From assembly GCA_027005175.1 (NCBI GenBank), contig JALTMC010000330.1:2664-19118 (forward strand): a DNA stretch of 16,455 nt, in the 5' to 3' direction. The notes beneath the pieces were generated by a model. It did no database searches. It was not told where the DNA came from and worked only from the letters and a program-made list of their open reading frames with translations. Within the stretch, counting starts at the first letter, position 1; each line of letters opens with the position of its first letter. Positions 1,993-16,414 of the stretch are shown piece after piece. The position numbers and the translations under genes are program-made. The DNA comes from Myxococcales bacterium. Lineage in GTDB: Bacteria; Myxococcota_C; UBA6777.

Positions 1993-3279
1993 TCATCGAA
2001 CCAGGGGGATCTCGGTGGTTTGCATGTTGTCGAGTTTTGCGCGGCCAAATTCGACGTCGTATTGGGCTTTGTGGAGGTTTTCCAAGACATATTGTGGTGA
2101 TCTTGCTTCCAATACCCAGTCTTCCAATACTTCGTGATCCCATCGGGACCCAAGCATATTGAATCCAAGAACCTTGGTACCATCATGGGCAATTCGCTGT
2201 GATATCGGTTGTCCTGGCATCTTGCGATAAATCGTAGGGGAGCCTTCAGGAAGTGTTTGGACAGCTCCCACTGTGGTATATTCAATCTCAAAAAACTTGG
2301 AGCTGTTGAAGAAAAGAGGAGGCTTGTATACTTCGCGTTGCCCGACGATGTTGCGTGCTACGTGAGCCCCCTGTCGTTTGGCGGAGTACCAGATCAACTC
2401 TGTGGTGGGGCGTTCTTGTCCGGGGAAATGGATCTCTGCACAGTCTCCGGCTGCGTAGACATTTTTTTGCGGCGTTTCGAGATACTCATTAACCACAATC
2501 CCCCGACCTAACTCGGGAGGTTGGGAGAAGTCTTTGAGTCGGTCGATGTTGGGGCGTACGCCTGCTGCGATTCCGAGCATCTGACACTCGATAACGTTGC
2601 CTTTGTTGGTATGGACTGCTTTGACACGGCCATTGTCATCTACTTCCACACGAGTCATTTCTTCAGTCAGGCGGACATCGACACCATGGTGTCTCATCTC
2701 TGCTGTAACAAAAGTAGCTTCTTCTTCACCCAGTGCCATGGGCCAATAATAGGATTCTCGAACCAGGAAGGTGACTTTGACACCGTGATGTCTCAGGCAC
2801 TCGACCAGCTCAATGCCAATCAGCCCGCCTCCGATTACAACAGCATGTTGTGTGCTGGGTGTGAGGCGTTCACATTGTTCCAGGTCTTGCATGGATACAA
2901 AGTGAACTTTGCCTTCTTTCACTTGATCCATACCGTCCCAGGGGAACATATTGGGCTTGGCTCCTACAGCATAGACAAGCTTGTCGTAGGGAATGCGTTC
3001 GCCATTGTCGAGCACGACTTGTTGGGTTTGCGTGTTGCAATCGACCATCCAGCCCTTGATGAGCTTGATATCTTGTCGAGCGTACTCTGAGCGTTCATAG
3101 GGCTCCAGATCTCGTCGTGTGAGTTTATCCATATAAGCGTACATCAACGCTGTACGGGAAAAAAAGTATTCGGTCTCCCCGCTGAGTACTGTAATGGATG
3201 CATCCTTGTCGTGTTTTCTGACTGTCATAGCGCAGGTGATGCCCGCTACACCATTTCCGATGATAACAACCCTCATCAA
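1993..3279 (-). CDS. FAD-dependent pyridine nucleotide-disulfide oxidoreductase family protein (rubredoxin/ferredoxin-reductase or NADH-oxidase-like).
   Basis: 428 aa. N-terminal VIIGNGVAG dinucleotide-binding motif at residues 5-13. A second Rossmann motif, VVIGGGLIGIE, lies mid-protein. The AAGDCAE motif is typical of the family. The specific substrate is not assignable. Confidence 0.8.
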   Translation of the reverse strand: MMRVVIIGNGVAGITCAMTVRKHDKDASITVLSGETEYFFSRTALMYAYMDKLTRRDLEPYERSEYARQDIKLIKGWMVDCNTQTQQVVLDNGERIPYDKLVYAVGAKPNMFPWDGMDQVKEGKVHFVSMQDLEQCERLTPSTQHAVVIGGGLIGIELVECLRHHGVKVTFLVRESYYWPMALGEEEATFVTAEMRHHGVDVRLTEEMTRVEVDDNGRVKAVHTNKGNVIECQMLGIAAGVRPNIDRLKDFSQPPELGRGIVVNEYLETPQKNVYAAGDCAEIHFPGQERPTTELIWYSAKRQGAHVARNIVGQREVYKPPLFFNSSKFFEIEYTTVGAVQTLPEGSPTIYRKMPGQPISQRIAHDGTKVLGFNMLGSRWDHEVLEDWVLEARSPQYVLENLHKAQYDVEFGRAKLDNMQTTEIPLVR

Positions 3280-3543
3280 ATACTCTCCTCCCTTGTTTGT
3301 TTTCTGCGTTTTAAAGAAACTTTGTTTCGATTGACCCTATACATACGAACAAACGATGCTTCTAGTGTGAGGTCGCTGTGATGCAAATTCTGCTACACTT
3401 GAATTTAACTGTATGATGTTTTCTATGGGCTCCCAGCAGCTTCTGAAAGACATGGACATCGCGAAATTACCTGTGAGTTCACCGTTCTGGTTGTTGGAGC
3501 AAGCTGGAATATTTCGGCAACGATGCGGTCTCTTTGTGAAAAC

Positions 3544-3658
3544 AAGGAACAAACAAGCTCCTTCTTAAGAAACAAACAAGTTTCTTCTTAAGGAACAAGC
3601 AAGTTTCTTCTTAAGGAACAAGCAAGTTTCTTCTTAAGGAACAAGCAAGCTCCTTCTT
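3544..3658. repeat. Five head-to-tail copies of a 23-bp unit (aaggaacaagcaagtttcttctt). Each unit has internal dyad symmetry (gaaac...gtttc), and each junction forms ttcttaaggaa around a CTTAAG core.
   Basis: Direct reading. Units 3 and 4 are identical. Units 1 and 5 carry the same variant (ctcc). Unit 2 is a perfect GAAAC-aaacaa-GTTTC palindrome. The array lies about 265-380 bp upstream of the oxidoreductase start on the minus strand. Confidence 0.8.
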
Positions 3659-4082
3659 GCGGTCCTTTTACAGTGTTTGAGTAAAAATACGCTATGGTTT
3701 GGATAGGATGATGGAAATAAAATGGACATGACCATGACCAGGAATGGCCTCCTTTGGTGTGCAAGTTTGCTTCTTTCTCTCGTGGGGCTAAAACCACCGA
3801 CTCTGAGGAAGAAAAACCCGACTGAAGTCGGCTCAGCTCTTTGTTTTTCCCTGTAGGGTAAGTGGTTTTGAGTGCTCTTTTGTATACTTCTCACCCTTAG
3901 AGTAGGACTGCAAGCTCCACGAAAATACAGGAGGTTCCGCTAGAAGCGACGATTGATGAACTTGAATATCTCAAATCGCACTCACAAGCACGCGGTTTTC
4001 TCCTGAATGTATTCGTTCAACTTGTTGGGTTGCCATTTCTACGTCCATTTCTTTTACTTCGTGACTCACACTCTGCTGTGCT

Positions 4083-4454
4083 TCACACCAATTCATCACT
4101 GTCTTTCGGGGTTTCTCTAACAAGGACTAGGATAGCACTTTGTGGGACGATATGATACTTTTCCCCCTCAAACTCCAGTTCAATGGCTGCTTTTTTTAGG
4201 AATAGAGCGTGATCTCCCGGTTTTGCTTCCATGGGCATATAGCGGACAGAGACTTCGGAGGAGCTCCAGTCTGTGAGCAGGGAAGGCTCCACAAGCGGGG
4301 TGCCTCGTCCTGTTTTAATGATCGTCCCTTCCAGGACATCTTCTTTATCGCGGACAGTGTCCGGAAGATAGAGACCCACCTCTGTTCGCTTTTCGGAGTC
4401 ATCGACTTTTAAGAGAACCCGGTCTCCAATGACAATCAGTTCTGTGGTGTTCAA
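4083..4454 (-). CDS. Divergent Cpn10/GroES-family co-chaperonin-like protein (123 aa, TTG start). No GroEL partner is adjacent.
   Basis: Pattern match to GroES: the N-terminus has DRVLLK (cf. DRVIVK), a mobile-loop-like segment, and a KPGDHALF...IVPQSAILVLV C-terminal beta-hairpin region. A strong SD (aagaggt) sits 6-8 nt upstream of TTG. It is longer than canonical GroES. Confidence 0.55.
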   Translation of the reverse strand: MNTTELIVIGDRVLLKVDDSEKRTEVGLYLPDTVRDKEDVLEGTIIKTGRGTPLVEPSLLTDWSSSEVSVRYMPMEAKPGDHALFLKKAAIELEFEGEKYHIVPQSAILVLVRETPKDSDELV

Positions 4455-4591: not shown

Positions 4592-5350
4592 TTAGGCGTT
4601 GGCACTTTTGATAATTCCGATGAAGTCTTCTGCTTTGAGGGCTGCTCCGCCGACAAGGGCACCGTCGATGTTCTTTTGGGAGAGCAGTTCTCTGCTGTTC
4701 TTGGGCTTGACACTGCCACCATAGAGGATTCGTACAGCGTCTGCGACATCGGGGGAAAAGAGCTGAAAGAGGTGTGCACGGATAAAGGCGTGAGCTTCTT
4801 CTGCTTGTGTGGGAGTGGCGGTTTTGCCTGTTCCAATCGCCCATACAGGTTCGTATGCGATGATAAGCTCGGAGCCTTCTTCGTGAGTGAGGCCTGTGAG
4901 GCCCTGAAGGATCTGTTGTTCAATGACTCTGACAAAGTCGCCGCGTTCACGTTCTTCCAGGGTCTCTCCAAAACACACGATGGGGATCAGATTGTGTTGG
5001 AAGGCTGCCTTGATTTTCTTGTTGACGATCTCATTGGTTTCACCGAAGTATTTGCGACGTTCGGAGTGGCCGATAAGGATATAATCTGCGCCTGCATCTT
5101 TGAGGAAGGAGGGGGAGATCTCTCCAGTGAAAGCACCACTCTCTTCCCAATGCATATTTTGCCCTGCGACGCTGATATAGGATTTTGCACAAAATTCAAC
5201 GACAGTATCGAGCGCTGTAAAGGGTGGGGCGACAATCACATCCACTTCACCAGGCCAGGTGAGTCCATAGTGGAGACCTTGAACAAGCTCCAAAGCCTGC
5301 CTCTTGTGCATGTTCATCTTCCAGTTGCCAGCAATCACCGGAGTTCTCAT
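4592..5350 (-). CDS. tpiA: Triosephosphate isomerase.
   Basis: Hallmark TIM motifs: VIAGNWKMN near the N-terminus, GHSERR, and AYEPVWAIGTGKTAT. I chose the internal ATG at 5350 (MRTPVIAGNWKMN), preceded by a ggggag RBS. The ORF-track start at 5419 adds a non-conserved 23-aa extension. Confidence 0.9.
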   Translation of the reverse strand: MRTPVIAGNWKMNMHKRQALELVQGLHYGLTWPGEVDVIVAPPFTALDTVVEFCAKSYISVAGQNMHWEESGAFTGEISPSFLKDAGADYILIGHSERRKYFGETNEIVNKKIKAAFQHNLIPIVCFGETLEERERGDFVRVIEQQILQGLTGLTHEEGSELIIAYEPVWAIGTGKTATPTQAEEAHAFIRAHLFQLFSPDVADAVRILYGGSVKPKNSRELLSQKNIDGALVGGAALKAEDFIGIIKSANA

Positions 5351-5698: not shown

Positions 5699-5814
5699 CG
5701 ACTTCGTTGCGGTAGCTGAGAAGAGAGCGTCTTGGGTCTTTCAGGAAACAGCACAGCCGTCAGCATATGACTTCGTTGCGGTAGCTGAGAAGAGAGTGTC
5801 TTGGGATTTTCAGG
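5699..5814. repeat. Two copies of a 47-bp direct repeat (gacttcgttgcggtagctgagaagagag[c/t]gtcttggg...ttcagga), period about 69 bp. The second copy abuts or overlaps the aldolase stop codon.
   Basis: Direct reading, about 44/47 identity. The repeated PKTLSSQLPQRS in the 5416..5934 shadow ORF is the same DNA repeat translated. Confidence 0.75.
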
Positions 5815-6703
5815 AGTTTCCCTGAAAGATCTTCTTGACCTCATCAAGGACAAGTTCTTCGAGTCGTGTTGGGTCGATGGGGACAGAGGCTTCGGTCCCT
5901 GCTGCTTTTGGTGACGGAGGCTGTGTTGTGTCAACAGATTTGGTCTCTTGTTTCTGTGTTTTGGCTTGTTGGTGGAGTTCTTCTTTCCACTGTTGGCGTG
6001 CTTCCTTTTCTCGCAGAGCTTTTTCTTGGAGGGCTGCTATTTTCTCTTGTCGGTTTTGGGGTCCTAAGCCGATGGATGCACGTTTTTTGAGTAGAGTGTC
6101 ACGATGTTCTTGAGCTAGGGTCATTGGCTGCCCCATTTGCATGGCATAATATTCGATTTTGGCGAGATGCTCGACAAGCTCGAGGCGTAGCCATGCTTGT
6201 TCAAGGTCATCTCCAATGGCTAAGATCCCATTGCCTGTCATCATGATGACATCGGCGATTTGCAATCCATCATGGATCAGTTTGTCATTCTCGGGAGCGC
6301 CAGGCATTGCAAAAGGGGTGACAGGAATACAGTCACCAATGGATACGATAGCTTCAGGGAGTGCTGGATATATTGGCTGGTTGACAAGGCCTCGTGCGGT
6401 GACAAAGGGGGGGTGGGCGTGGACCACAGCGTTGGCATCGGGTCTTGCACGGTAGGCGGAGAGGTGGAGCTTGATCTCCGAGAAAGGTCTGCCGATCCCC
6501 TCGATCTTTTTGCCCTCCATATCGAGGGTGATGACCATCTCTGGCTTGATGGAAGCTTTGCTCTCGGAGGTTGGGGTGGCGAGCAGCACATCGTCGAGGC
6601 GAGCGGATATATTGCCATCGTGATTGGCGGTGAAACCTTTATGGTCTAGTTTTTGAGAGATCTCTGCAATCAGGTTGCTGAGATAACTTCGCCTTGAACC
6701 CAT
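5810..6703 (-). CDS. Class II aldolase/adducin-family enzyme (FucA-like: fuculose/rhamnulose-1-phosphate or 5-deoxyribulose-1-phosphate aldolase type). It has a C-terminal Lys/Glu/Gln-rich linker and a terminal amphipathic helix that resembles a BMC encapsulation peptide.
   Basis: YRARPDANAVVHAHPPFVTA matches the FucA metal-binding region (YQSRPDANAVVHNHAVHCTA). The catalytic domain is about 210 aa. A roughly 85-aa tail then follows, ending PIDPTRLEELVLDEVKKIFQGNS (amphipathic, EP-like). Confidence 0.85.
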   Translation of the reverse strand: MGSRRSYLSNLIAEISQKLDHKGFTANHDGNISARLDDVLLATPTSESKASIKPEMVITLDMEGKKIEGIGRPFSEIKLHLSAYRARPDANAVVHAHPPFVTARGLVNQPIYPALPEAIVSIGDCIPVTPFAMPGAPENDKLIHDGLQIADVIMMTGNGILAIGDDLEQAWLRLELVEHLAKIEYYAMQMGQPMTLAQEHRDTLLKKRASIGLGPQNRQEKIAALQEKALREKEARQQWKEELHQQAKTQKQETKSVDTTQPPSPKAAGTEASVPIDPTRLEELVLDEVKKIFQGNS

Positions 6704-6708
6704 TGATT

Positions 6709-7362
6709 TTAACCCAACTGACTTCCGGTCTTGGTGGCTTGCATATGGTTGAGATGCTCAATGGCTTGTAGGGCAGCTTCTGCGCAGGAATCGATCTCCG
6801 ATTCCTTTCCGCTCAAGATCAGCCGTCCCGTTGCACCGTAAGGTTTGATGTGAATCAGTTTGACCTCTGCTGCTTTGAGTGCCTCGTTACAAATGAGGGA
6901 CATATAGGAAGCGGGCTTGGCTTCCAGAATCAAGAGTGATTCACCCGAGAGGACCATGTTCCCAGAGGCGAGGCTGGAGAAAAACATGGAGTGATCCTTT
7001 TCAACACCTCGGATGATCTGGTTGGTCAGGAGTTGGATCGGGGCGCGGTCATTTTCGTCCAATCCTGTTTCTCGAAGAACGGCTCGACCCGCTTCTTGAA
7101 CTTCGCCGTGGGTCGGATGGTGAACGACAAACAAACCAAAGTGTCGCTCTGTGATGATCTCTCCGAGTCGCACGCTTGTGCCCTTTAAGGCGAGGTCAAC
7201 CATACGGTGGATCTCCATGGCAGGTGAGATCTCCATCACCAGCGCAGAATCGTACTCTGAGGGATCATAGACGCTATTCTTTTGAGCAATAAACTGGGCC
7301 AACTGAGGTTGCAAACTGTCGATAAAAGTGAGGGTTCGCAGCTCGAAATATTGAGATAGCAT
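6709..7362 (-). CDS. BMC-T shell protein of the EutL/PduB type (tandem permuted BMC domains).
   Basis: 217 aa, about EutL length. It has two internally repeated halves. The second half, LLILEAKPASYMSLICNEALKAAEVKL...ILSGKESEIDSCAEAALQAIE, parallels EutL [23 protein letters not shown]...FLTGSQAACKAACNAF. A GGAG RBS lies upstream. Confidence 0.65.
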   Translation of the reverse strand: MLSQYFELRTLTFIDSLQPQLAQFIAQKNSVYDPSEYDSALVMEISPAMEIHRMVDLALKGTSVRLGEIITERHFGLFVVHHPTHGEVQEAGRAVLRETGLDENDRAPIQLLTNQIIRGVEKDHSMFFSSLASGNMVLSGESLLILEAKPASYMSLICNEALKAAEVKLIHIKPYGATGRLILSGKESEIDSCAEAALQAIEHLNHMQATKTGSQLG

Positions 7363-7415: not shown

Positions 7416-8330
7416 TTAATATTTTCCTTTTGCGGCTTTTTTTCCAGTGACAATGGCGATACTCGCTGAAGCACCGATTCGATTGGCTCCAGCCTTTATC
7501 ATCTTTTCCGCGTCTTCTCGTGAACGAACACCGCCAGAAGCTTTGACTTCCATGTCACAACCTACCACTCTTCGCATCAGCTCGACATCTTCTACAGTGG
7601 CTCCACCTGAACCAAAACCGGTGGAGGTCTTTACAAAGGCTGCACCGGCTGTTTTGCTAAGTGTACAGGCAATGACTTTTTCTTCGTCTGTGAGACTTGA
7701 GTTTTCAAGGATGACCTTGACTTTGTAGGGTGCTGAAGCTTTGACAACTTCGCGAATGTCTTCATACACCAGTTGGTACTCTCTGGACTTGAGTGCACCG
7801 ATGTTGATAACCATGTCTATCTCTTGGGCACCGTTTCGGATCGCCTCTTTGGCCTCAAAAGCTTTGGCATGACTCGTTGATGCGCCCAATGGAAAGCCAA
7901 CCACCGCGATGGGTTTGACGCCAGAGCCTCGCAATTGTCGTGCGACCAGCGGGATATTGCTCGCGTTGACGCAAACGGTAGCAAACTGATAACGCTTGGC
8001 TTCGTCGCAGATATTTAACAACTCTTCTCGGGTAGCATCCGCCTTTAATAAGGTGTGGTCGATGTATTTGGCGAGAGTATGGTCGATCTTCTCTCCAAAT
8101 CCAGGCTTTGCGCCAATTCGTACAGCGCCGGAGTTGATAATATTGCCACAGGCATCTTTTTTGATTGTGGCACAATGACCACATCCATCGCAGTTATCCA
8201 TGGAGAGCAGACAGGGGGCATCTCCACAAGACCCACCAGCTTGCATGCCGGCTCCACCGGATTGCAAGCGCTCCACCACTTGCTGGGTGATCTTGCGGAC
8301 AATCTCATCAAGGTTGTTATTTTGACTCAT
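7416..8330 (-). CDS. deoC: Deoxyribose-phosphate aldolase with an N-terminal extension of roughly 75 aa. The extension is an EP-like amphipathic helix followed by a Gly-rich linker and a six-Cys cluster.
   Basis: DeoC core motifs: [42 protein letters not shown], and VKASGGVRS (Schiff-base Lys region). N-terminus: [16 protein letters not shown], then GGAGMQAGG, then C-x4-C-x6-C-x2-C-x2-C-x7-C. Confidence 0.85.
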
Positions 8331-8938: not shown

Positions 8939-9496
8939 CTACCTCTGGAATACTTTTTCAAGAAATTCAGGATGGGGGGAAGGGATGATCTCATAATTGG
9001 CTAACATACCTTCTTTTTGTGCATAACGCCATGCTGCTTCCATCGATGCTTCAAGTTGGTGGAGTTCTCCGGTGATCACAAAGTAGCCTTTTCCTCCGAG
9101 TCCACTACCCAATTTGAGTTCTACGAGTTGAACAGGTGTTGTCTTGGCTGCTCGGTCAGCGGCAAAAACGCAAGAGCATACGGAGAAGGTTTCGACGATA
9201 CCGATAGCACCGAAGGTCTCAATCGCGGTGCTTCCTGCGATCGCCGATAGCACGCTGTGATGGAGTTGAGGGATGATAATGTCATGGACGAGCCCGTCTC
9301 CGGCTGCCACAACACCAGCCTTGTGAGATTCTTCCACATCCCCCACTTCACCACCAAAAAGAGTGATGTACTTTCCGGGAGAGATCGGGTGGGATTGGAG
9401 AATCCGTACGGGCGCCTTTTTGGCAATGGCATCGGTGGAAAAGATACCTTTTGCCACAGACTTGTATTCGATCATCCCGAGAGCGGGCTCCTGCAT
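8939..9496 (-). CDS. BMC-T shell protein, PduT-like (tandem canonical BMC domains). The Fe-S ligand Cys of PduT is replaced by Ser.
   Basis: ALGMIEYKSVAKG...SHPISPGKY aligns to PduT AIGILELTSIAKG...SKTICPGKF (C to S). The second domain is AIGIVETFSVCSCVFAADRA. I chose the start at the internal ATG (MQEPALGM), preceded by aggaaaagagga. The ORF-track start at 9535 adds 13 aa. Confidence 0.75.
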   Translation of the reverse strand: MQEPALGMIEYKSVAKGIFSTDAIAKKAPVRILQSHPISPGKYITLFGGEVGDVEESHKAGVVAAGDGLVHDIIIPQLHHSVLSAIAGSTAIETFGAIGIVETFSVCSCVFAADRAAKTTPVQLVELKLGSGLGGKGYFVITGELHQLEASMEAAWRYAQKEGMLANYEIIPSPHPEFLEKVFQR

Positions 9497-9507
9497 TCCT
9501 CTTTTCC

Positions 9508-10839
9508 TTATCGTCTGGTGCGAATCTCGATCCATGCGTCACAAATATCGCTAACATGACCTGCAATGGATGCATGAAAACACAACCCAAGTTGATCCAG
9601 TGGACTCTCTGCTATCCTATCACCCATTCGTACCCTTTCTCCCACTCGTACCTGGGGGATCACAGGTACACCAAAGCGTTTCTCAAGCGGTACTCGAACC
9701 AAGCCAACGTGTTTTGTCCCCTCGTAAGGGAGCTTTTGAAGATAGCGCTGAATATCCATCTTTTTGAGCAGCATGGGAAGGGATACCCTGGCATTTTCGT
9801 AACCGGAACGTACCTTTGGCTCTTCTTGTGTTTTGGGATAGTGAAGTCCTCTTTGCTCTAACTCATTCCGGGTCTCTGCAAAAAGCTGTCGGGGAGAGAG
9901 TTGCATCACATCACAGGCTATCAAGTCGCAGACACCGCACTGGCTGCACAAAAAGGAAGACATCAAGTGCTCTGTGTCTACCTTGTTGTAGTTGATGGCC
10001 CGCATCATTTGATGGGGAAAGATGTCGTGCCCTGCGAGGTAGCGTGGACACATGTCTGTGCATCGCATACACTGACTGCAAGCCGCCTTGGATTGTTTTA
10101 GCATCTGTGTGGTGCTTTTGCTTTTTATGCGAATGATACAGTGGTCTTGTGCCAAGACCGTGATCCCATTTGTTGTTTTGGTGATCCCAAGACTGTGGTT
10201 CTGAACCAACCCTCCTCGCAGTGGACCCCCATCCAAAATGGCTACAGGATGTTGTGTGGTGCCGCCTGCCATATCCAATAGATCACTGTAGGTTGTTCCT
10301 ATCGGTACTCTTACGATTTTGGGTTCCGCGACCTCTCCCACGATACTGACGAGCTTTTCTGTGACAGCCTTCCCTCCCATTGCCCGAGCCATCTGAGCCA
10401 ACGATACAACATCATTCACGACAATACCGATGTCTCTGGGGCTTCCTCCTTCAGGAACAACACGCTTTTTGATGTCGTAGGTGAGGTGGACTTCATCTCC
10501 GGTCGGATGGTGGTCTCTCAGCGGAAAGAGTGAAATGGAGCCATCAGAGGGGAGAGCCTGGTTCAGAGACTCGAGCAACTTCGGTTGTGCTCCTCGGGTT
10601 GCGATAATTCCTTCCCGGGCTCCTGTCGCCGTCATCGCGAGCTTCAAACCGTCCATGACGAGATCGGGTCTTTCTTCCATTAATACCGTGTCGGTGGCGA
10701 GGAGAGGTTCGGATTCACTGCCATTGGCAATGACTGTATCCGCTTTCGCCAAGAGCTTGCGATACGTTGGTTCTCCCCCATCTCCGGAATCCATAATCCC
10801 AGCCAGTCGAACAGCATTGATGATCGCATTTCGCTTCAT
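9508..10839 (-). CDS. PduS-like (RnfC/Nqo1-like) Fe-S flavoprotein. It has a divergent N-terminal nucleotide/flavin-binding motif.
   Basis: Two 4Fe-4S motifs: CSQCMRCTDMCP and CSQCGVCDLIAC. The N-terminal SGDGGEPTYRKL sits where the plus-strand paralog has GAGGGGFPAHVKL. SESEPLL sits where the paralog has AECEPLL. Confidence 0.8.
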   Translation of the reverse strand: MKRNAIINAVRLAGIMDSGDGGEPTYRKLLAKADTVIANGSESEPLLATDTVLMEERPDLVMDGLKLAMTATGAREGIIATRGAQPKLLESLNQALPSDGSISLFPLRDHHPTGDEVHLTYDIKKRVVPEGGSPRDIGIVVNDVVSLAQMARAMGGKAVTEKLVSIVGEVAEPKIVRVPIGTTYSDLLDMAGGTTQHPVAILDGGPLRGGLVQNHSLGITKTTNGITVLAQDHCIIRIKSKSTTQMLKQSKAACSQCMRCTDMCPRYLAGHDIFPHQMMRAINYNKVDTEHLMSSFLCSQCGVCDLIACDVMQLSPRQLFAETRNELEQRGLHYPKTQEEPKVRSGYENARVSLPMLLKKMDIQRYLQKLPYEGTKHVGLVRVPLEKRFGVPVIPQVRVGERVRMGDRIAESPLDQLGLCFHASIAGHVSDICDAWIEIRTRR

Positions 10840-10851
10840 AAGACCGATACT

Positions 10852-12348
10852 TTAGAGGACACCAAAGTATCCCTTGAGGGTACATCTTCGGATACGAGTA
10901 AATGTGCGGGCTGTGGTCATGCCTTCTCCTGTGGGAGAGGCGATGGTGAAGGATGTTGGCCCTTCACCTCCCAGACCCAAACCCGCCAGAGAGCCGCCGT
11001 TTTTGACAAACAAACTTGTGTTCATCTTGATGGCCATCTTGTGCATATTGTCGATATTTTTGGAGTGAATGCAGGCGGTGTGAAAGCAGCCTTGTTCCAG
11101 TGTGTATGCGATATCGATCGCCTCATCGATATCTCTGGCTTGTATCAGTGGAACAACGGGCAACATCAACTCTTGCACAGCAAAGGGGTGATCTGCGTCG
11201 GTTTGAGTAATGGCCAGCCGCTTGGAGGCATCCACTTCCATCCCAATCTCTCGCAAGATGACCTGAACATCCTTACCCACAAACCTCTTTTCAACATGCC
11301 CATGATCGTCCAGGATAAGGTTCTTCAAGCGTCTGGTTTGGAAAGGGCTCAACTCCACGGCCCCGTGTTTGAGCATGTATTTCTTGAGCGGAGCAAGAGC
11401 TTTTCTTGTGGCGATGATCTCCTTTTCGACCACACAGATAATATTGTTGTCTGTGCTTGCACTGGTCACGATGTCACGTGCGGCTTGTTCCAAATCGGCA
11501 GTCTCATCAACAACCACCGGAGGGTTCCCCGGTCCGGCAGCGATCACTCGTTTCCCCGACTGCATCGCAGCTCGCACAACAACAGGGCCGCCGGTGACGA
11601 CCAACAGTCGGATACCTCGGTGCTTCATCAATCGCTGTGCGCTTTGGATGGTGGGAGAGCGCAAGGTGGTGAAGAGGTTGGGGGGACCCCCCTCTGAGAT
11701 GACCGCTTTGTTCATGATGTTGATCGTAAAGAGGGATACTTTTCGGGACGAAGGGTGAGGGTGAAAGACCACACTGTTTCCACCTGCCAACATCCCAATA
11801 CCGTTGTTGATAATGGTCTCTGAGGGATTGGTGGTGGGGGTGATGCTGCCGAGAACACCGAAGGGACATCTCTCTTCGAGAGTGAGCCCGTCGTCTCCCA
11901 CAAAACTGTTGGCTTCAATGTCTTCAACACCAGGGGTCTTGAGAATAGCAAGGCGGTTTTTTACCAGCTTGTCTTCATACCGGCCAAGCCCCGTTTCCTC
12001 CACGGCCATTCGGGCCAGATCTTCAAGGTGCTCCATGCAGATCTCACGAACCGCTGCAACGATCCTTTTGCGTTGCTCTATAGAGATGCTCCGAAATTCT
12101 TCGAATGCCTTCTGTGCCGCTTCTACAGCAGTGTCAAGGTCGGGAAAACAGCCCAACTCTCCCACACCCGAGCCCCAGGCTCGTGGACCCGGTACAAATG
12201 TAGGGCGGGCAGGAGGCGAAGGGGCCAGTACGGGAACAGAAGTTCGAGGGAGTGCTTGGGTAGGGTTGGAAGGCTCGTGGGAATCGACTGCCAACTGCTC
12301 GACGACGCGGTCGACAATGGAGCGAATTTGATCGTCCGTCACTTTCAT
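10852..12348 (-). CDS. CoA-acylating aldehyde dehydrogenase (PduP/EutE family) with an N-terminal encapsulation peptide and Pro-rich linker.
   Basis: Aldehyde dehydrogenase superfamily core, about 450 aa. N-terminus MKVTDDQIRSIVDRVVEQLA (amphipathic EP), then the linker PSNPTQALPRTSVPVLAPSPPARPTFVPGP. I chose the ATG at 12348 (ggaaaggtgg RBS). The ORF track starts 4 codons earlier at GTG. Confidence 0.85.
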   Translation of the reverse strand: MKVTDDQIRSIVDRVVEQLAVDSHEPSNPTQALPRTSVPVLAPSPPARPTFVPGPRAWGSGVGELGCFPDLDTAVEAAQKAFEEFRSISIEQRKRIVAAVREICMEHLEDLARMAVEETGLGRYEDKLVKNRLAILKTPGVEDIEANSFVGDDGLTLEERCPFGVLGSITPTTNPSETIINNGIGMLAGGNSVVFHPHPSSRKVSLFTINIMNKAVISEGGPPNLFTTLRSPTIQSAQRLMKHRGIRLLVVTGGPVVVRAAMQSGKRVIAAGPGNPPVVVDETADLEQAARDIVTSASTDNNIICVVEKEIIATRKALAPLKKYMLKHGAVELSPFQTRRLKNLILDDHGHVEKRFVGKDVQVILREIGMEVDASKRLAITQTDADHPFAVQELMLPVVPLIQARDIDEAIDIAYTLEQGCFHTACIHSKNIDNMHKMAIKMNTSLFVKNGGSLAGLGLGGEGPTSFTIASPTGEGMTTARTFTRIRRCTLKGYFGVL

Positions 12349-12450
12349 CAGAAAAACCACCTTTCCCTTTGGGAAGTACTGGTTTTGCTGGCGACAAAAC
12401 CAGGAGAGGGGGTGCCATAGGCATACAGGAGAAGAGAATCTTCTTCCGAA

Positions 12451-12738
12451 TTATTTGCTGTAACGCGTTTCCCCGTGAACCTCTACGAGGTCAACAATCG
12501 CCATAATGACGGTGTCTACTGGTTTTCCCTGGGTTATTGTTGTCTGGCGAGCCGCACTGCCCGCAGCAACAAGAACAACCTCTCCAATGCCGGCACCGAC
12601 AGAGTCGACGGCAACAACCATCCCTCCTGTCTCCTGGCATTGGACGTCAAGGTACTTGACGACATGCAGTCTTATTCCTTCGAGCTTCTCGTCTTTCTGT
12701 GTTGAAACGATCGTTCCAACAATTTTCCCGAGTTGCAT
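12451..12738 (-). CDS. BMC-P vertex shell protein (third paralog).
   Basis: MQLGKIVGTIVSTQKD...VVAVDSVGAG, EutN/CcmL-like. I chose the internal ATG at 12738 with an aaggag RBS 6 nt upstream. The 43-aa ORF-track extension is not conserved-looking. Confidence 0.8.
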   Translation of the reverse strand: MQLGKIVGTIVSTQKDEKLEGIRLHVVKYLDVQCQETGGMVVAVDSVGAGIGEVVLVAAGSAARQTTITQGKPVDTVIMAIVDLVEVHGETRYSK

Positions 12739-12971
12739 CAATGCTCCTTCAACGAGAAGAGAACGAAGCCCAAGTACCCCTTTCTTTCGAGCACCAACCC
12801 CTTGGTTTGTGGCTGCTGAAACCAACATGACACAATGGGTTTGTCCCGTAAGGGGGGACGGGAGCACTCAGGTACAATCACAGCAATGCAGAGTGTCTGA
12901 ATCTTGCGATCATCTCTGTGATGACTCCCGTGTCGGGATCACGTTCTCTGGTCGGATTGTCCAAGGTTTGA

Positions 12972-12991
12972 GTTGCTGTTGAACGCTCAAC
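12972..12991 (-). other. 7-bp-stem hairpin (ctgttga-acgc-tcaacag) just downstream of the BMC-H stop. It has no U-tract and is a possible intra-operon RNA structure.
   Basis: Inverted repeat read directly. Its position between the BMC-H and BMC-P genes is analogous to attenuating hairpins after shell genes in other BMC operons (inference). Confidence 0.3.
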
Positions 12992-12999
12992 AGTCCGTC

Positions 13000-13296
13000 T
13001 CAATCCCCAGACTTCTCACCATTGCGACCAAGGGGGAGTGTGCTATCTACGTTGGAGTGAGGTCTGGGAATCACATGAACGGAGACAAGCTCACCCACTT
13101 TTTCAGCCGCTCTAGACCCTGCTTCTGTCGCCGCTTTGACAGCCGCCACATCTCCACGAACAATGACCGTGACAAAACCACCACCGATCTTTTCGTAGCC
13201 AACAAGCTCTACTTTCGCTGCTTTGACCATCGCGTCAGAGGCTTCTACGACTCCAACAAAGCCTCTTGTCTCAATCATCCCTAATGCATCAGCCAT
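13000..13296 (-). CDS. BMC-H hexameric shell protein (PduA/PduJ/CcmK type, Pfam BMC).
   Basis: [57 protein letters not shown] is near-canonical for BMC-H. 98 aa. Confidence 0.9.
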
Positions 13297-13539
13297 ATAT
13301 ACGTGTCCTCTTTCTTGAATTGTGGGACGACCGTTTGGGTAATCGGCCGGAACTACTGTTCCGAATCATCGGTGGTATTCTCAGGTGAGCCGCTAACAAA
13401 GAAGGGCAAACCCTAGCACAGCAAATCAGGAGTGTCAAGAACTACAGACGATTCTTTTTTTCTCTTTTTCTCCTGTCAATACCGGTGCTTTTGGCCTTCT
13501 CTCAAAGCTCACTTCACATCTCGTGAACAGAGCAAAGAT

Positions 13540-13553
13540 AGAGTCTTGACTCT
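13540..13553. promoter_or_regulatory. Perfect dyad AGAGTC-tt-GACTCT in the roughly 500-bp divergent intergenic region between the two BMC operons. It overlaps a TTGACT -35-like hexamer with a weak TAGTTT 17 nt downstream.
   Basis: Symmetry read directly. The operator and promoter interpretation is inference. Confidence 0.3.
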
Positions 13554-13803
13554 CCTTGCCCCCTTTGCTAGTTTGGCCCCTTCACACCATTCGGACGTAG
13601 ACGTCGGCCGCTTGAACCGAGTCGTTGGCCGCTTGAACATAGGAACAGCGAGAAAACAACTTGAACATTTCGAACGGCAATCGCCGGAACCTTCGGGATT
13701 TACAATTCCCACATATGTTCAACTTCTTTGGTCGCCATTCCTAGAATGCAGAACCAGGTATTTGTTTCTCATTGAATTGAAAATGAGGTTGGAGTAGGTT
13801 TAT

Positions 13804-15147
13804 ATGCCGCATTTCTCATCGTCTTTTTCGGCAAAAGATATCGTGGAGAAGGTCCGACAGGCAGGCATTGTCGGTGCGGGAGGTGGAGGCTTTCCTGCGC
13901 ATGTCAAGCTCGATGCAAGTGTAGACTTTTTTATTGCCAACGCTGCGGAGTGTGAGCCTTTGCTGTGCAAGGATCAGCAGCTTATGGAGCTGCATGCACA
14001 ACGCATGGTGCATGGACTTCGTCTTGGGATGAAAGCCACTGGGGCGTCTCGTGGCATCGTCGCGATCAAGAAGAAGTACAAAAGAGCGATAGCCCAACTC
14101 GAAAAGTACGTGAGTGGGAACATCGACTTCTACCTCTACGACAACTTCTACCCTGCTGGAGATGAGTTTATCATCGTATATGATGTGTTGGGACGCTTGA
14201 TTCCACCAGGAGGGATACCTCTTGATGTGGGTTGTGTTGTCAACAATGTCGAAACACTGATCAATATCTCTTGTGCCATGGAGGATGTTCCTGTGACACA
14301 TTCCGCGCTGACGATCGCGGGTGCTGTTCATGAGCCTCTCTCTGTTGTGGCACCTCTTGGAACTTCTCTGCGAGAGCTTCTCGCTTTGGCGGGAGGGGCG
14401 ACTGTGGAGGACCCGGTTTTTCTCGATGGTGGTGCGATGATGGGGAAAGCTCTGGATGATCTGGATGCTCCTGTGACCAAGACATCAGCAGGTTATATCG
14501 TGATCCCCAGAGAACACCATCTCTATCGTCGCAAAACACGAAGCGATGAGGCCAATGTTCACATCTCTCGCTCTGCTTGTGACCAGTGTAGCTATTGTAC
14601 GGAACTGTGTCCTCGTTATCTTCTTGGTTATGCTATCGAACCACATGCGGTGATGCGTTCGGTTGGTTTTGAGGGGGACAAAGAAGCTCATTGGGCAAGA
14701 CTTGGCCTGTTGTGTTGTGAGTGCGGTATCTGCGACTTGTATGCCTGCCCTGAAGACCTGCCTGTGAAAGACATGCAGATCCGTTCCAAAGCCATCTGGA
14801 ATGCACGTGGATGGCCCAAAGAGCACCTCATTGGCTTGGACAGAGTTCATCCCATGCGAGACAGTCGTCGTGTGCCTATCCCACGATTGATTCAACGCTT
14901 AGGACTGACAGACTGGGATGTTACCGCTCCAATGACAACCAAGGTTCTGGAGCCGATGAATGTACAGTTGATGCTGAAACAACACGCTGGTGCTCCTGCG
15001 GTACCGATTGTTGGGGAGGGGGAGGTTGTGAAAGTCGGCCAACTTGTCGCGGCGATTCCCGATGGACAACTCGGTGCCAACATTCATGCAAGTATCGATG
15101 GATATGTAGCCCGTATCGATGACAACAGTATCTGGTTGACGAGGTAA
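13804..15147 (+). CDS. PduS-like (RnfC/Nqo1-like) Fe-S flavoprotein with canonical motifs.
   Basis: GIVGAGGGGFPAHVKL glycine-rich FMN/NADH motif. AAECEPLL. Two Fe-S motifs: CDQCSYCTELCP and CCECGICDLYACP. 447 aa. Confidence 0.85.
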   Translation: MPHFSSSFSAKDIVEKVRQAGIVGAGGGGFPAHVKLDASVDFFIANAAECEPLLCKDQQLMELHAQRMVHGLRLGMKATGASRGIVAIKKKYKRAIAQLEKYVSGNIDFYLYDNFYPAGDEFIIVYDVLGRLIPPGGIPLDVGCVVNNVETLINISCAMEDVPVTHSALTIAGAVHEPLSVVAPLGTSLRELLALAGGATVEDPVFLDGGAMMGKALDDLDAPVTKTSAGYIVIPREHHLYRRKTRSDEANVHISRSACDQCSYCTELCPRYLLGYAIEPHAVMRSVGFEGDKEAHWARLGLLCCECGICDLYACPEDLPVKDMQIRSKAIWNARGWPKEHLIGLDRVHPMRDSRRVPIPRLIQRLGLTDWDVTAPMTTKVLEPMNVQLMLKQHAGAPAVPIVGEGEVVKVGQLVAAIPDGQLGANIHASIDGYVARIDDNSIWLTR

Positions 15148-15150
15148 TTT

Positions 15151-15726
15151 ATGAGCTGGAGAAGTTTCGATAAACCCACTCCCCCTGCTATCGGTTTTCT
15201 GGAGCTTTCAAGTATTGCTCGTGGCATTGAAGCTACAGATGCGATGCTCAAAGCTGCCGATGTTCTCCTGGTGCTTGCCCGAACCATCTGCTCGGGAAAA
15301 TACATGGTTTTGGTCGCTGGTGAGGTTCAGGACATCGAAGCCAGCGTCGCCGCTGGCGTTGCAATCGGGAAGGAATGTACCATCGATCAATTTATCATTC
15401 CCAATGTTCATCCCGCTGTATTCCCTGCGGTGTCTTCCTCTGGTATGTTCCGCGGTAGCGGTGCTATCGGTATTATTGAGTCCTTCTCGGTAGCCTCTTT
15501 AATTGAAGCCATCGATCAGATCGCAAAAGCGGCACTGGTCGAGGTGGTGGAGTGTCGTCTTGCGATGGCTCTAGGTGGAAAAGCATATGTTGTCTTTACG
15601 GGCGATGTTGATGCCGTTCAATACTCCATTGATGCAGGCGCTGAGGTTGTTAAAAAGCGCGGTCTTTTGGTCAACCAGGTCGTCATTCCCAACCCTCGAA
15701 AAGAGTTGTTTGACACCCTGATCTAG
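15151..15726 (+). CDS. BMC-T shell protein, PduT-like, retaining the 4Fe-4S ligand Cys.
   Basis: AIGFLELSSIARGIEATDAMLKAADVLLVLARTICSGKY aligns to PduT ...KTICPGKF. The second BMC domain is AIGIIESFSVASLIEAIDQIAKAA. Its ATG is 3 nt after the PduS-like stop, with a gaggt RBS. Confidence 0.8.
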   Translation: MSWRSFDKPTPPAIGFLELSSIARGIEATDAMLKAADVLLVLARTICSGKYMVLVAGEVQDIEASVAAGVAIGKECTIDQFIIPNVHPAVFPAVSSSGMFRGSGAIGIIESFSVASLIEAIDQIAKAALVEVVECRLAMALGGKAYVVFTGDVDAVQYSIDAGAEVVKKRGLLVNQVVIPNPRKELFDTLI

Positions 15727-15748: not shown

Positions 15749-16414
15749 ATGAGTCGTAAACGATCCATTTTCGCGTTTTTGTTCGCATGTCTTGTGCCTG
15801 TACTCTTCCCAATGGAAGCTATAGCTCGAAAGAGCGTCAAAACGATCTGCAGTTGGAAGAACGCGAAAACGACTATCGGAACGGCCCGTGAGTTTCGAGG
15901 TTGGCAGGTCTATTCTCCTGCGATCGAATGCTTGGCGAAGCAACTACAAAAAGCAAATCCAGGACAAGACAGTCCTGAGGCTGCTCTCGTCACCTTTTTT
16001 CGTCGCTTGATGAAACAGCGTCCTTCATTCAGGGCAATCTTGTCACCAACGATGCATCCGAAGTTTCGTGTGCTCCTTGAGAAAGGACTGCTTGCTCAAA
16101 CAACAAAGTTTCGACGCTTTATTCTTCACTCTCGCATTCATGCCTCTCGTGCCCCCAAAGGCAATCGATTCTCGAAGCGGTTTGCCAAACAAGGCAACAC
16201 TATGTTTGGTGCCTTTGATCTGCTTGTGTTTGCTGAGGGCAATACCAGCAGTACCGATATAATTTTGTTTTTAAAGAAGACGAACAAACGCTGGTATATC
16301 CAAGGCTTTCTCGCGCACTGGTTACGTCCTTTGTTCAAAGGAATGAAACATCCTTGGTGGCTCAAGGCCAAGAAAAAGAAAACCAAGAAAACGGCATCCA
16401 AGCCGAAGCTCTAG
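15749..16414 (+). CDS. Hypothetical exported protein with a Sec-type signal peptide and a Lys-rich C-terminal tail.
   Basis: N-terminus MSRKRS-IFAFLFACLVPVLFP-MEAIA (n-h-c regions, AxA site). The C-terminus is KAKKKKTKKTASKPKL. An aaggag RBS lies 7 nt upstream. I recognise no domain. Confidence 0.5.
   Translation: MSRKRSIFAFLFACLVPVLFPMEAIARKSVKTICSWKNAKTTIGTAREFRGWQVYSPAIECLAKQLQKANPGQDSPEAALVTFFRRLMKQRPSFRAILSPTMHPKFRVLLEKGLLAQTTKFRRFILHSRIHASRAPKGNRFSKRFAKQGNTMFGAFDLLVFAEGNTSSTDIILFLKKTNKRWYIQGFLAHWLRPLFKGMKHPWWLKAKKKKTKKTASKPKL

Follow-up and report, generated by a model that had tools for sequence, protein, structure and literature searches.

Results

Gene organization of the locus

The window analysed here is a 16,455-nucleotide stretch (positions 2,664 to 19,118) of contig JALTMC010000330.1, from the Myxococcales bacterium assembly GCA_027005175.1. 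It encodes two divergently oriented PduS-PduT gene pairs, one on each strand. An original prediction, made from the letters of the DNA, had placed four open reading frames (ORFs) in this arrangement, and the ORF list confirms all four (Table 1). The minus-strand proteins are called PduSm and PduTm, and the plus-strand proteins PduSp and PduTp. These names are used in the broad homologue sense, without an NCBIfam equivalog-level assignment: the four proteins score below the cut-offs of eut_PduT (TIGR02526) and rnfC (TIGR01945) (118.5 and 117.1 against 250.3; 183.4 and 239.5 against 245.95). In the minus-strand pair, residues at the cofactor sites of both partners are changed, the changes are coupled, both genes are under selection, and the intact plus-strand pair beside it is of separate ancestry.

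In the current model, PduS homologues of this kind (MNdh) dock on the lumenal face of the tile BMC-T^SE, and electrons pass from NADH to FMN and through three [4Fe-4S] clusters to the outside (PMC11626177). This electron export would regenerate NAD+ for the acylating aldehyde dehydrogenase (AldDH) in loci without an alcohol dehydrogenase (PMC11626177). Binding of PduS to PduT has been demonstrated (PMC2982820). Both pairs in the window share the architecture of this MNdh/BMC-T^SE module. PduSm and PduSp each contain the Pfam domains Complex1_51K, SLBB and Fer4_17 and a circularly permuted, C-terminal RnfC_N, and PduTm and PduTp each contain two BMC domains (tandem PF00936) and are encoded next to the MNdh gene. 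The window likewise contains AldDH, the NADH producer served by MNdh, and neither an alcohol dehydrogenase nor PduL nor ribose-5-phosphate isomerase (RPI) was found in it by the ORF list and Pfam scans.

The minus-strand operon has the order BMC-H, BMC-P, AldDH, PduS, PduT, BMC-P, BMC-P, DERA, BMC-T^dp, class II aldolase and triosephosphate isomerase (TPI). By comparison with the published description (PMC11585597), it is an SPU5-type sugar-phosphate microcompartment operon: it combines a DERA with an N-terminal extension and AldDH, no RPI, a CsoS1D-like BMC-T^dp, three BMC-P genes, a class II aldolase with a C-terminal extension, TPI and a PduS homologue. Unlike the SPU5 loci described, the window has an extra divergent PduS-PduT pair, and its resident pair is degenerate. 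BMC-H is 80-87% identical to the BMC-H proteins of relatives. The AldDH ORF opens with GTG at 12360 and the ATG at 12348 is the likely start; the N-terminus of AldDH forms an encapsulation-peptide-like helix.

Table 1. Coordinates of the genes and features of the locus, numbered from the first letter of the window
Feature	Position	Strand	Basis and remarks
TPI	4592..5350	-	Pfam
Class II aldolase, ~100-residue C-terminal extension ending in an amphipathic helix	5810..6703	-	ORF list, Pfam
CsoS1D-like BMC-T^dp	6709..7362	-	Pfam; PF27545 CsoS1D_N in precomputed table
DERA (DeoC family), N-terminal extension; SPU signature enzyme	7416..8330	-	Pfam; PMC11585597
BMC-P3	8350..8622	-	Pfam
BMC-P2	8619..8927	-	Pfam
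PduTm, tandem-BMC trimer tile (BMC-T^S), pore Cys replaced by Ser	8939..9496	-	Pfam
PduSm, resident MNdh/PduS homologue, NADH/FMN site degenerate	9508..10839	-	Pfam, family comparison, AlphaFold2 model
AldDH	10852..12348	-	ORF list, Pfam
BMC-P1 (pentamer)	12451..12738	-	Pfam; gene call in L085
BMC-H, opening gene of the minus-strand operon	13000..13296	-	Pfam
Intergenic region, 507 bp, between divergent BMC-H and PduSp	13297..13803	.	Consensus matches only
PduSp, canonical MNdh/PduS	13804..15147	+	Pfam, motif read-out, tree
PduTp, canonical BMC-T^SE	15151..15726	+	Pfam, motif read-out

The two-pair arrangement is not an assembly artefact, because a single ENA scaffold (scaffold_32832) carries the AldDH N-terminus, BMC-P1, BMC-H, PduSp and PduTp, AldDH spans the junction as a single intact protein of 498-502 residues that aligns full-length with its orthologues, and the GC content of the window is uniform (~0.50). 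The ENA assembly does break between the two halves at ~12075-12086, within AldDH, and the same sample holds another organism with a related locus (L097, described below). Nevertheless, we consider it extremely improbable that two pairs from different organisms were joined in silico during assembly or binning. PduS-PduT adjacency is also present in independent assemblies.

Cofactor sites of the two PduS proteins

As predicted, the plus-strand pair is canonical. PduSp contains GAGGGGFP (13873-13896), AECEP (13945-13959), YPAGDEF and eight Fe-S cysteines, and the pore motif of PduTp is ICSGK (15286-15300), so that this pair has every motif of the module. In PduSm, DSGDGGEP (10768-10791) stands where canonical PduS reads GAGGGGFP. 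When the proteins were examined for a GxGGxGFP loop together with the flavin-adjacent Tyr (YPAGDE), PduSp had both (GAGGGGFP, FYPAGDE), whereas PduSm had neither (DSGDGGEP, HHPTGDE). The other motifs of PduSm are SESEP (10705-10719), DHHPTGDEV (10489-10515) and GGPLRG (10213-10230). Both of its [4Fe-4S] tetracysteine motifs are intact (10048-10080 and 9913-9948) and all eight Fe-S cysteines are kept, in agreement with the original prediction. The pattern CxxCxxCxxxC / CxxCxxCxxxxC is the same in PduSm, PduSp and Citrobacter freundii PduS.

PduSm had been proposed to have lost cofactor ligands at both the glycine loop and SESEP, and only the first part of this proposal stands. In the alignment with Thermus Nqo1, the PduS loop falls on G64-R-G-G-A-G-F70-P71, and PduSm carries the equivalents of G64D, G67D and F70E. 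In contrast, SESEP is not a lost ligand, because the equivalent motif of NuoF itself reads DESEP (D94-E95-S96-E97-P98). E95 and E97 of NuoF contact NADH, and active enzymes have Ser or Met at position 96 (PMC6560083); both glutamates are kept in PduSm, whose E-x-E-P motif corresponds to E95-S96-E97-P98 and whose Lys28 corresponds to Nqo1 Lys75. Tyr111, which is 100% conserved in the PduS family, is His in the window protein and Asp in its closest relative, P0002 (see below). It maps to the Tyr of NDUFV1 (Y-I-C-G-E-E) beside the isoalloxazine. In NDUFV1, this Tyr is placed against the isoalloxazine and the glycine-rich loop is part of the flavin cavity; the complex or its flavin is lost when this region is mutated (PMC4614703). 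Two Gly-to-Asp changes and one Phe-to-Glu change in a phosphate-binding loop would be electrostatically hostile to FMN and NADH, and PduSm has probably lost the binding of both.

The AlphaFold2 model of PduSm has a pLDDT of 92.3 and a pTM of 0.91, and its best structural match is RnfC (9ERI_C, E 2e-23, TM 0.66). Because the model was driven by an alignment of intact homologues and contains no ligands, it cannot show pocket occlusion.

Pore residue of PduTm

The pore motif of PduTm is ISPGK (9371-9385) and departs from C-P/S/A-G-K, to which PduTp conforms. The predicted replacement of the pore Cys by Ser is borne out by the alignment: the Ser falls column for column on Cys38 of Citrobacter PduT (3PAC, TICPGKF) and on the Ser of the Salmonella entry 3N79 (TISPGKF). 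We take the 3N79 Ser to be the C38S variant that was used as a cluster-free PduT. PduTm matches the true PduT structures 3NWG and 3PAC with E 1e-40 to 1e-43. Only three of 55 near-invariant PduT columns are altered in both PduTm and its orthologue in the sister lineage (C39S, I83L and P84S/D). An upstream ATG at 9535 would lengthen PduTm by 13 residues; its orthologues begin at MQEPALG. The pore [4Fe-4S] cluster has probably been lost from PduTm.

The pore motif CP(G/S)K has been reported to be universally conserved beside MNdh, and BMC-T^S proteins that are not beside MNdh have no pore Cys (PMC11626177). The minus-strand pair of the window breaks this rule and also lacks the glycine-rich NADH/FMN loop. 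Like PduTm, BMC-T1 of Haliangium ochraceum (PDB 5DIH; E 5e-28) is a single-layer tandem-BMC trimer without a pore cysteine. The entry 5DII is presumably a Cys-engineered, cluster-binding form of the same tile. Unlike the BMC-T^S tiles, however, PduTm is much closer to true PduT, is a syntenic orthologue of Cys-bearing tiles and is still encoded beside a PduS gene.

Separate ancestry of the two pairs

PduSm and PduSp are 35% identical, and PduTm and PduTp 39%. In a neighbour-joining tree of PduS (100 bootstraps), PduSm groups with P0002 as its sister (100% bootstrap), and the two share a long stem within the SPU5 family; their exact place inside this family has a bootstrap of 40-45% only. PduSp lies in another clade and has an ordinary branch length. 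From these identities and the different clades, it follows that a resident module stands beside another of different ancestry, and that the two pairs are not recent duplicates. Duplication in situ, considered as the source of the two pairs, is rejected on the same grounds. Many relatives of PduSp are 60-69% identical to it, and they come mainly from metagenome-assembled genomes (MAGs) labelled Deltaproteobacteria or Myxococcota. PduSp-type pairs elsewhere are stand-alone satellites (L087-L090) or are the leading genes of SPU3-like loci that encode an RPI-DERA fusion (L091 and L092); the latter loci have a separate non-Cys BMC-T after AldDH. The phylogeny of the MNdh/BMC-T^SE module has been described as uncoupled from the type of microcompartment; the module probably moves horizontally and is frequently found as a satellite (PMC11626177). 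A PduSp orthologue from the sample of P0002 (SRR14005096) was sought among the closest PduSp homologues; P0128 and P0129 came from other samples.

Rarity of the degenerate pair

Among the 120 closest homologues of PduSm, GxGGxGFP and (S/A)ECEP are present in all except the window protein and P0002. P0002 is 66% identical to PduSm, and the others are ~46-54% identical. Thus about 118 orthologues that occupy this position in the operon are intact. P0002 is encoded on a 2.8-kb contig of another sample (L002; SRR14005096), the AldDH of which is 88% identical to that of the window. It reads DSGDGKEP and VDAEP, with E42 changed to D and Y111 to D, and the PduT beside it begins ...SHSISPGKY. The species-representative genomes L003-L017 have the operon order of the window with intact motifs (for L014 and L016, see below), and no second PduS-PduT pair was found within 10 kb in any of them. 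The labels of these same-order relatives include Gammaproteobacteria, Bdellovibrionales, Nitrospirales, Acidobacteriota and others. Two scans of metagenome contigs for further members of the degenerate clade gave nothing close, and the clade consists of the window and L002.

We then compared the degenerate proteins with the 130 PduS columns that are at least 95% conserved among 118 canonical family members. Both PduSm and P0002 are changed in 26 of these columns. In half of these columns, the two proteins have acquired the same residue (G17D, A18S, G20D, F23E, M207L, M208R and others). The other 13 changed differently (C43S/A, K82R/S, Y85Q/gap, N109D/Q, Y110H/N, Y111H/D, F117V/I, L135R/E and others). 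Changed columns are only modestly enriched in the flavin domain, where they make up 13 of 53 conserved columns, as compared with 13 of 77 in the remainder of the protein. Therefore, the argument rests on which residues changed and not on their number. The changed columns read as a fixed new acidic loop together with relaxed constraint around what would be the former flavin site.

Of the 150 nearest 50%-identity PduS clusters that were retrieved from 1.84 billion representatives, 138 were intact. Besides the window protein, three full-length proteins are among the exceptions. P0461 has the loop DADD-GMP and keeps eight Cys, which is the pattern of the window in an unrelated lineage; in P0365, the glycine loop is destroyed and five of the eight cluster-ligating Cys are missing; and P0498 has the loop GASGSGRA.

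Coupled change in PduS and PduT

The original prediction described the changes in the two partners as correlated. This was examined by counting the 69 adjacent PduS-PduT pairs in all fetched loci. Sixty-four pairs are intact in both genes and three are degenerate in both (window, L002 and L014), and a Ser-pore PduT beside an intact PduS was found in none of the 69. The hypergeometric p value, calculated by hand, is about 2e-4; because the window and L002 belong to sister lineages, the number of independent events is smaller. The changes in the two partners are coupled beyond chance. Among the 120 closest PduTm homologues, the pore residue is Ser in seven and Cys in 113, and wherever the PduS cofactor sites of Ser-pore relatives could be read, PduS was impaired or deleted in every fetched case.

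L014 (JAFEAO010000001.1, Bdellovibrionales bacterium SZAS-1) is an independent event of a different kind from that in the window. In its PduS, four of the Fe-S ligands are replaced (C254S, C257R, C260S and C309D) and the loop is GAAGMGYP; its PduT reads PLSPGKY. In two further SPU5-like loci (L095:2172-7590, SRR10520159; L096:333-3371, GCA_024449835.1), a Ser-pore BMC-T follows directly after AldDH, with gaps of 80 and 21 bp, and the PduS gene is deleted. In L097 (ERZ23495147 scaffold_192433), from the second organism in the window's own sample, the PduT (P0251, 62% identical) has a Ser pore and is preceded by a PduS C-terminus, the N-terminal loop lying beyond the 1.1-kb contig. Thus, across lineages there is a series from the intact pair, through a dead PduS with a Ser tile, to the Ser tile alone.

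Two of these relatives showed other peculiarities. In L014 (4821-12560), EutB and EutC (ethanolamine ammonia-lyase) lie directly upstream of SPU5-like shell genes, AldDH, PduS and PduT, and DERA, BMC-P2 and BMC-P3 are absent; this looks like a swap of the signature enzyme onto an SPU5-type shell. In L016 (6021-7341; JACPAJ010000004.1), PduS is split into two overlapping ORFs beside a Cys-bearing PduT, through a frameshift or a sequencing error. If the split is real, it would be a PduS pseudogene next to a tile that still bears Cys.

Selection and evolutionary rate

Between the window and L002, synonymous divergence is saturated (dS at least 1.5), with identities of 39-50% at third and 84-95% at second codon positions. 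For PduSm, these values are 39% and 85%. The ratio of nonsynonymous to synonymous substitution rates (dN/dS) is ~0.06-0.11 for PduSm, 0.05-0.12 for PduTm and 0.02-0.06 for AldDH. The 443-codon ORF of PduSm has neither a stop nor a frameshift in either lineage, and the ORF of PduTm is intact in both. Derived loop residues are kept through synonymous codons (S18 TCC/TCT, G19 GGA/GGT, D20 GAT/GAC). Both genes are under purifying selection. The dN/dS comparison across relatives and the search for frameshifts, both suggested by the original prediction, therefore speak against pseudogenes: over the pair, dN/dS is ~0.06-0.12 at saturated dS. Of its proposal of sub-functionalisation rather than decay, the absence of decay stands; sub-functionalisation does not, as the pairs are not split duplicates.

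The degenerate pair nevertheless evolves faster than canonical pairs. Relative to AldDH over shared columns, the distance ratio between the degenerate proteins is 3.4 for PduS and 2.9 for PduT, whereas in 66 canonical pairs it is 1.66 +/- 0.29 (maximum 2.53) and 1.55 +/- 0.40 (maximum 2.62), respectively. At equal AldDH dN (~0.08), the dN of PduS is 0.246 against 0.076 in the canonical case, and that of PduT is 0.205 against 0.043. The constraint on the degenerate pair is relaxed 1.5-5 fold as compared with canonical orthologues. We also compared single domains of the degenerate pair with those of canonical pairs of equal overall identity, and the distribution of constraint over the domains is shifted. 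The Fer4 domain is less conserved (70% against 82 +/- 4%). The flavin domain (Complex1_51K) is unchanged (69% against 68%), and the linker (59% against 48%) and the C-terminal RnfC_N (66% against 57%) are more conserved. At the N-terminus of PduSm, the first 11 residues, and 14 of the first 16, are identical to those of P0002, as compared with 66% overall. The PduS N-terminus mediates PduT binding (PMC2982820).

Other features of the window

Rfam and tRNA scans of the window gave no match. In the 507-bp region between the divergent genes, a sigma-70-like site lies on the minus strand (13479-13451; consensus match only), and a promoter scan gave only weak consensus matches, in a number near that expected from shuffled sequences. 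Upstream of PduSp, a 19-nt direct repeat occurs twice with 21-nt spacing (13599-13638; AGACGTCGGCCGCTTGAAC / AGTCGTTGGCCGCTTGAAC), followed by an imperfect inverted repeat of 29 nt (13640-13668 / 13715-13743). The repeats at 13599-13743 may serve the plus-strand pair as an operator or leader structure. Directly after PduTp, the plus strand (15749-16414) encodes a 221-residue protein that begins like a signal peptide and ends in a lysine-rich tail (...KAKKKKTKKTASKPKL). Pfam gave no match for it, and PduSp-type pairs of other genomes have no conserved counterpart beside them.

At the end of the minus-strand operon, after TPI, lies a gene (4083-4454, minus strand) for a Cpn10/GroES-like protein of 123 residues (Pfam E 5e-13, two matched stretches). 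It is also called on an independent ENA scaffold, and a co-chaperonin-like gene is unusual in a microcompartment operon. Downstream of the operon, the minus strand encodes a 428-residue flavoprotein of the pyridine-nucleotide-disulphide family (1993-3279) and a 603-residue polytopic membrane protein with 4Fe-4S dicluster domains at its C-terminus (17-1828). These two proteins are conceivable cytoplasmic or membrane acceptors of exported electrons; neither was seen beside related loci. Intergenic tandem repeat arrays are found at 1826-1953 (28 nt x 4.8; CAAGCGGTCGGTGACCCGGTTTTGTGTG) and 3544-3658 (23 nt x 5; AAGGAACAAGCAAGTTTCTTCTT). The stretch 3300-4080 (~750 bp) has no convincing gene and no Rfam match. 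At 5700-5815, a 47-bp segment is repeated ~69 bp apart with 93.6% identity; it lies immediately downstream of the class II aldolase gene, the last codons of which it overlaps, and before TPI.

Discussion

In the canonical route, NADH would reduce FMN and the electrons would then pass through the two [4Fe-4S] clusters of PduS, to leave through a further [4Fe-4S] cluster, whose ligands are three cysteines in the pore of the PduT trimer. In the resident pair of the window, both ends of this wire, the NADH/FMN entry and the pore-cluster exit, appear to be lost. With both ends gone, recycling of NAD+ would most likely be supplied by the intact pair encoded head to head with the resident operon. PduTm would survive as a plain shell tile with no redox role, comparable to the BMC-T^S proteins that are found away from MNdh and have no pore Cys. 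PduSm would survive as an NADH-blind protein with Fe-S ligands, probably docked on PduTm, as a structural or organising subunit. We therefore slightly favour the view that the resident module lost electron export, that its neighbour supplies it, and that the old pair persists as shell tile and adaptor. A structural role for one pair, which the original prediction offered as one possibility, is in our opinion the best reading of the degenerate pair. That an RnfC-like protein can be "dead" and still keep a role has a precedent in NqrA, an RnfC-lineage member of Na+-NQR that has lost FMN and persists as a structural subunit (PMC9588780). Unlike PduSm, which keeps all eight ligands, NqrA has lost both Fe-S clusters, and it belongs to a membrane complex.

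Several points weigh against this shell-tile and adaptor view. The losses of FMN, NADH and the pore cluster are deduced from residues in an alignment. The Fe-S ligands have been retained, and the acidic loop, once derived, has been conserved; both hint at more than a passive structural role. The identity of the Fer4 domain is 70%, against 82 +/- 4% in canonical pairs, which fits only weakly with Fe-S clusters that are still essential. The acceleration in rate comes from one sister pair, and one canonical pair (L009-L012) comes close to it. L014, L095 and L096 show no compensating pair in their fetched DNA, which for L095 and L096 consists of short contigs. Moreover, the 2.8-kb contig of L002 is too short to show a second pair, so that acquisition of the intact pair may or may not have preceded, or permitted, the degeneration.

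The retained ligands might instead mean that PduSm has gained a new function as an NADH-independent Fe-S protein, whose former flavin pocket, with the acidic loop DSGDGxEP and Arg208, binds some new partner or ligand. In that case, lumenal redox modules of two different kinds would operate in one compartment. D17, S18, G19, D20, E23 and P24 are identical in the two lineages despite saturated dS and synonymous codon differences, the flavin domain is as well conserved as in canonical pairs, and the unrelated cluster representative P0461 repeats the combination of acidic loop and eight Cys. However, the partner tile has no cluster ligand and offers no obvious route out of the shell, the Fer4 domain is conserved less than normal, and PduS is dispensable in other Ser-pore lineages. 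In addition, the residues of the isoalloxazine site (Y110, Y111, N109, K82, Y85 and L135) diverged differently in each lineage, which suggests relaxed rather than redirected constraint. We regard such a new function as unlikely. In a wider form of this idea, PduSm would belong to a scattered class of pseudo-MNdh proteins (with P0461, P0365, P0498 and L014 as independent instances), which gave up NADH oxidation and were kept for another role in the microcompartment, the acidic pocket of PduSm binding a new partner or ligand. This would place two different lumenal redox or organising modules on two trimer tiles, and we consider it rather improbable.

In another explanation, PduTm is a needed tile and PduSm a functionless remnant in slow decay, kept intact only by chance or because its loss would disturb downstream genes through polarity or translational coupling. 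PduS is deleted in both L095 and L096, each with a Ser-pore PduT, so that part of the trend is toward loss of PduS. At equal AldDH divergence, PduSm is ~3 times faster than its canonical orthologue, and half of the changed conserved sites differ between the two lineages. In contrast, the retention of a 443-codon ORF in two lineages beyond synonymous saturation, the difference between second and third codon positions and the low dN/dS are not expected of a neutral sequence. Slow decay is possible but fits the selection signal poorly, and we give it a low probability.

Finally, both pairs may be active conduits with different potentials or donors, if the cluster of PduTm is ligated by Ser and flavin or NAD(P)H is accommodated by the altered loop of PduSm. 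Serine ligands of Fe-S clusters are known from some proteins, and the window PduSm retains the Fe-S motifs, K28, E42, E44 and G114-D-E116. Against this, the solved Salmonella PduT entry has Ser at the pore position, the phosphate-binding loop appears hostile to FMN and NADH, and P0002 has further lost E42 (to D) and has Asp at Y111. The pore motif has also been described as universal beside functional MNdh (PMC11626177). Two separate conduits, as the original prediction suggested, are very unlikely, because the degenerate pair would be without both entry and exit.

The MNdh/BMC-T^SE module and the SPU5 locus type are known. As far as the literature searched shows, four points are new: an exception to CP(G/S)K beside MNdh, a "dead" MNdh on which purifying selection still acts, the presence of an intact module of other ancestry along with it, and a recurrent, always coupled loss; no report of two MNdh modules of different ancestry in one locus was found in that literature. 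The module was only recently proposed as a general way for metabolosomes to recycle NAD+ without cofactors crossing the shell, and the window locus does not overturn this model of electron export. Rather, it adds comparative evidence that PduS and PduT function, and fail, as one unit. The degenerate pair provides natural paired "knock-outs" for testing a structural or organising role of MNdh. Together with its relatives, it gives a view of module turnover in microcompartment evolution, in which an intact pair, a dead pair and a plain tile without PduS can be seen.

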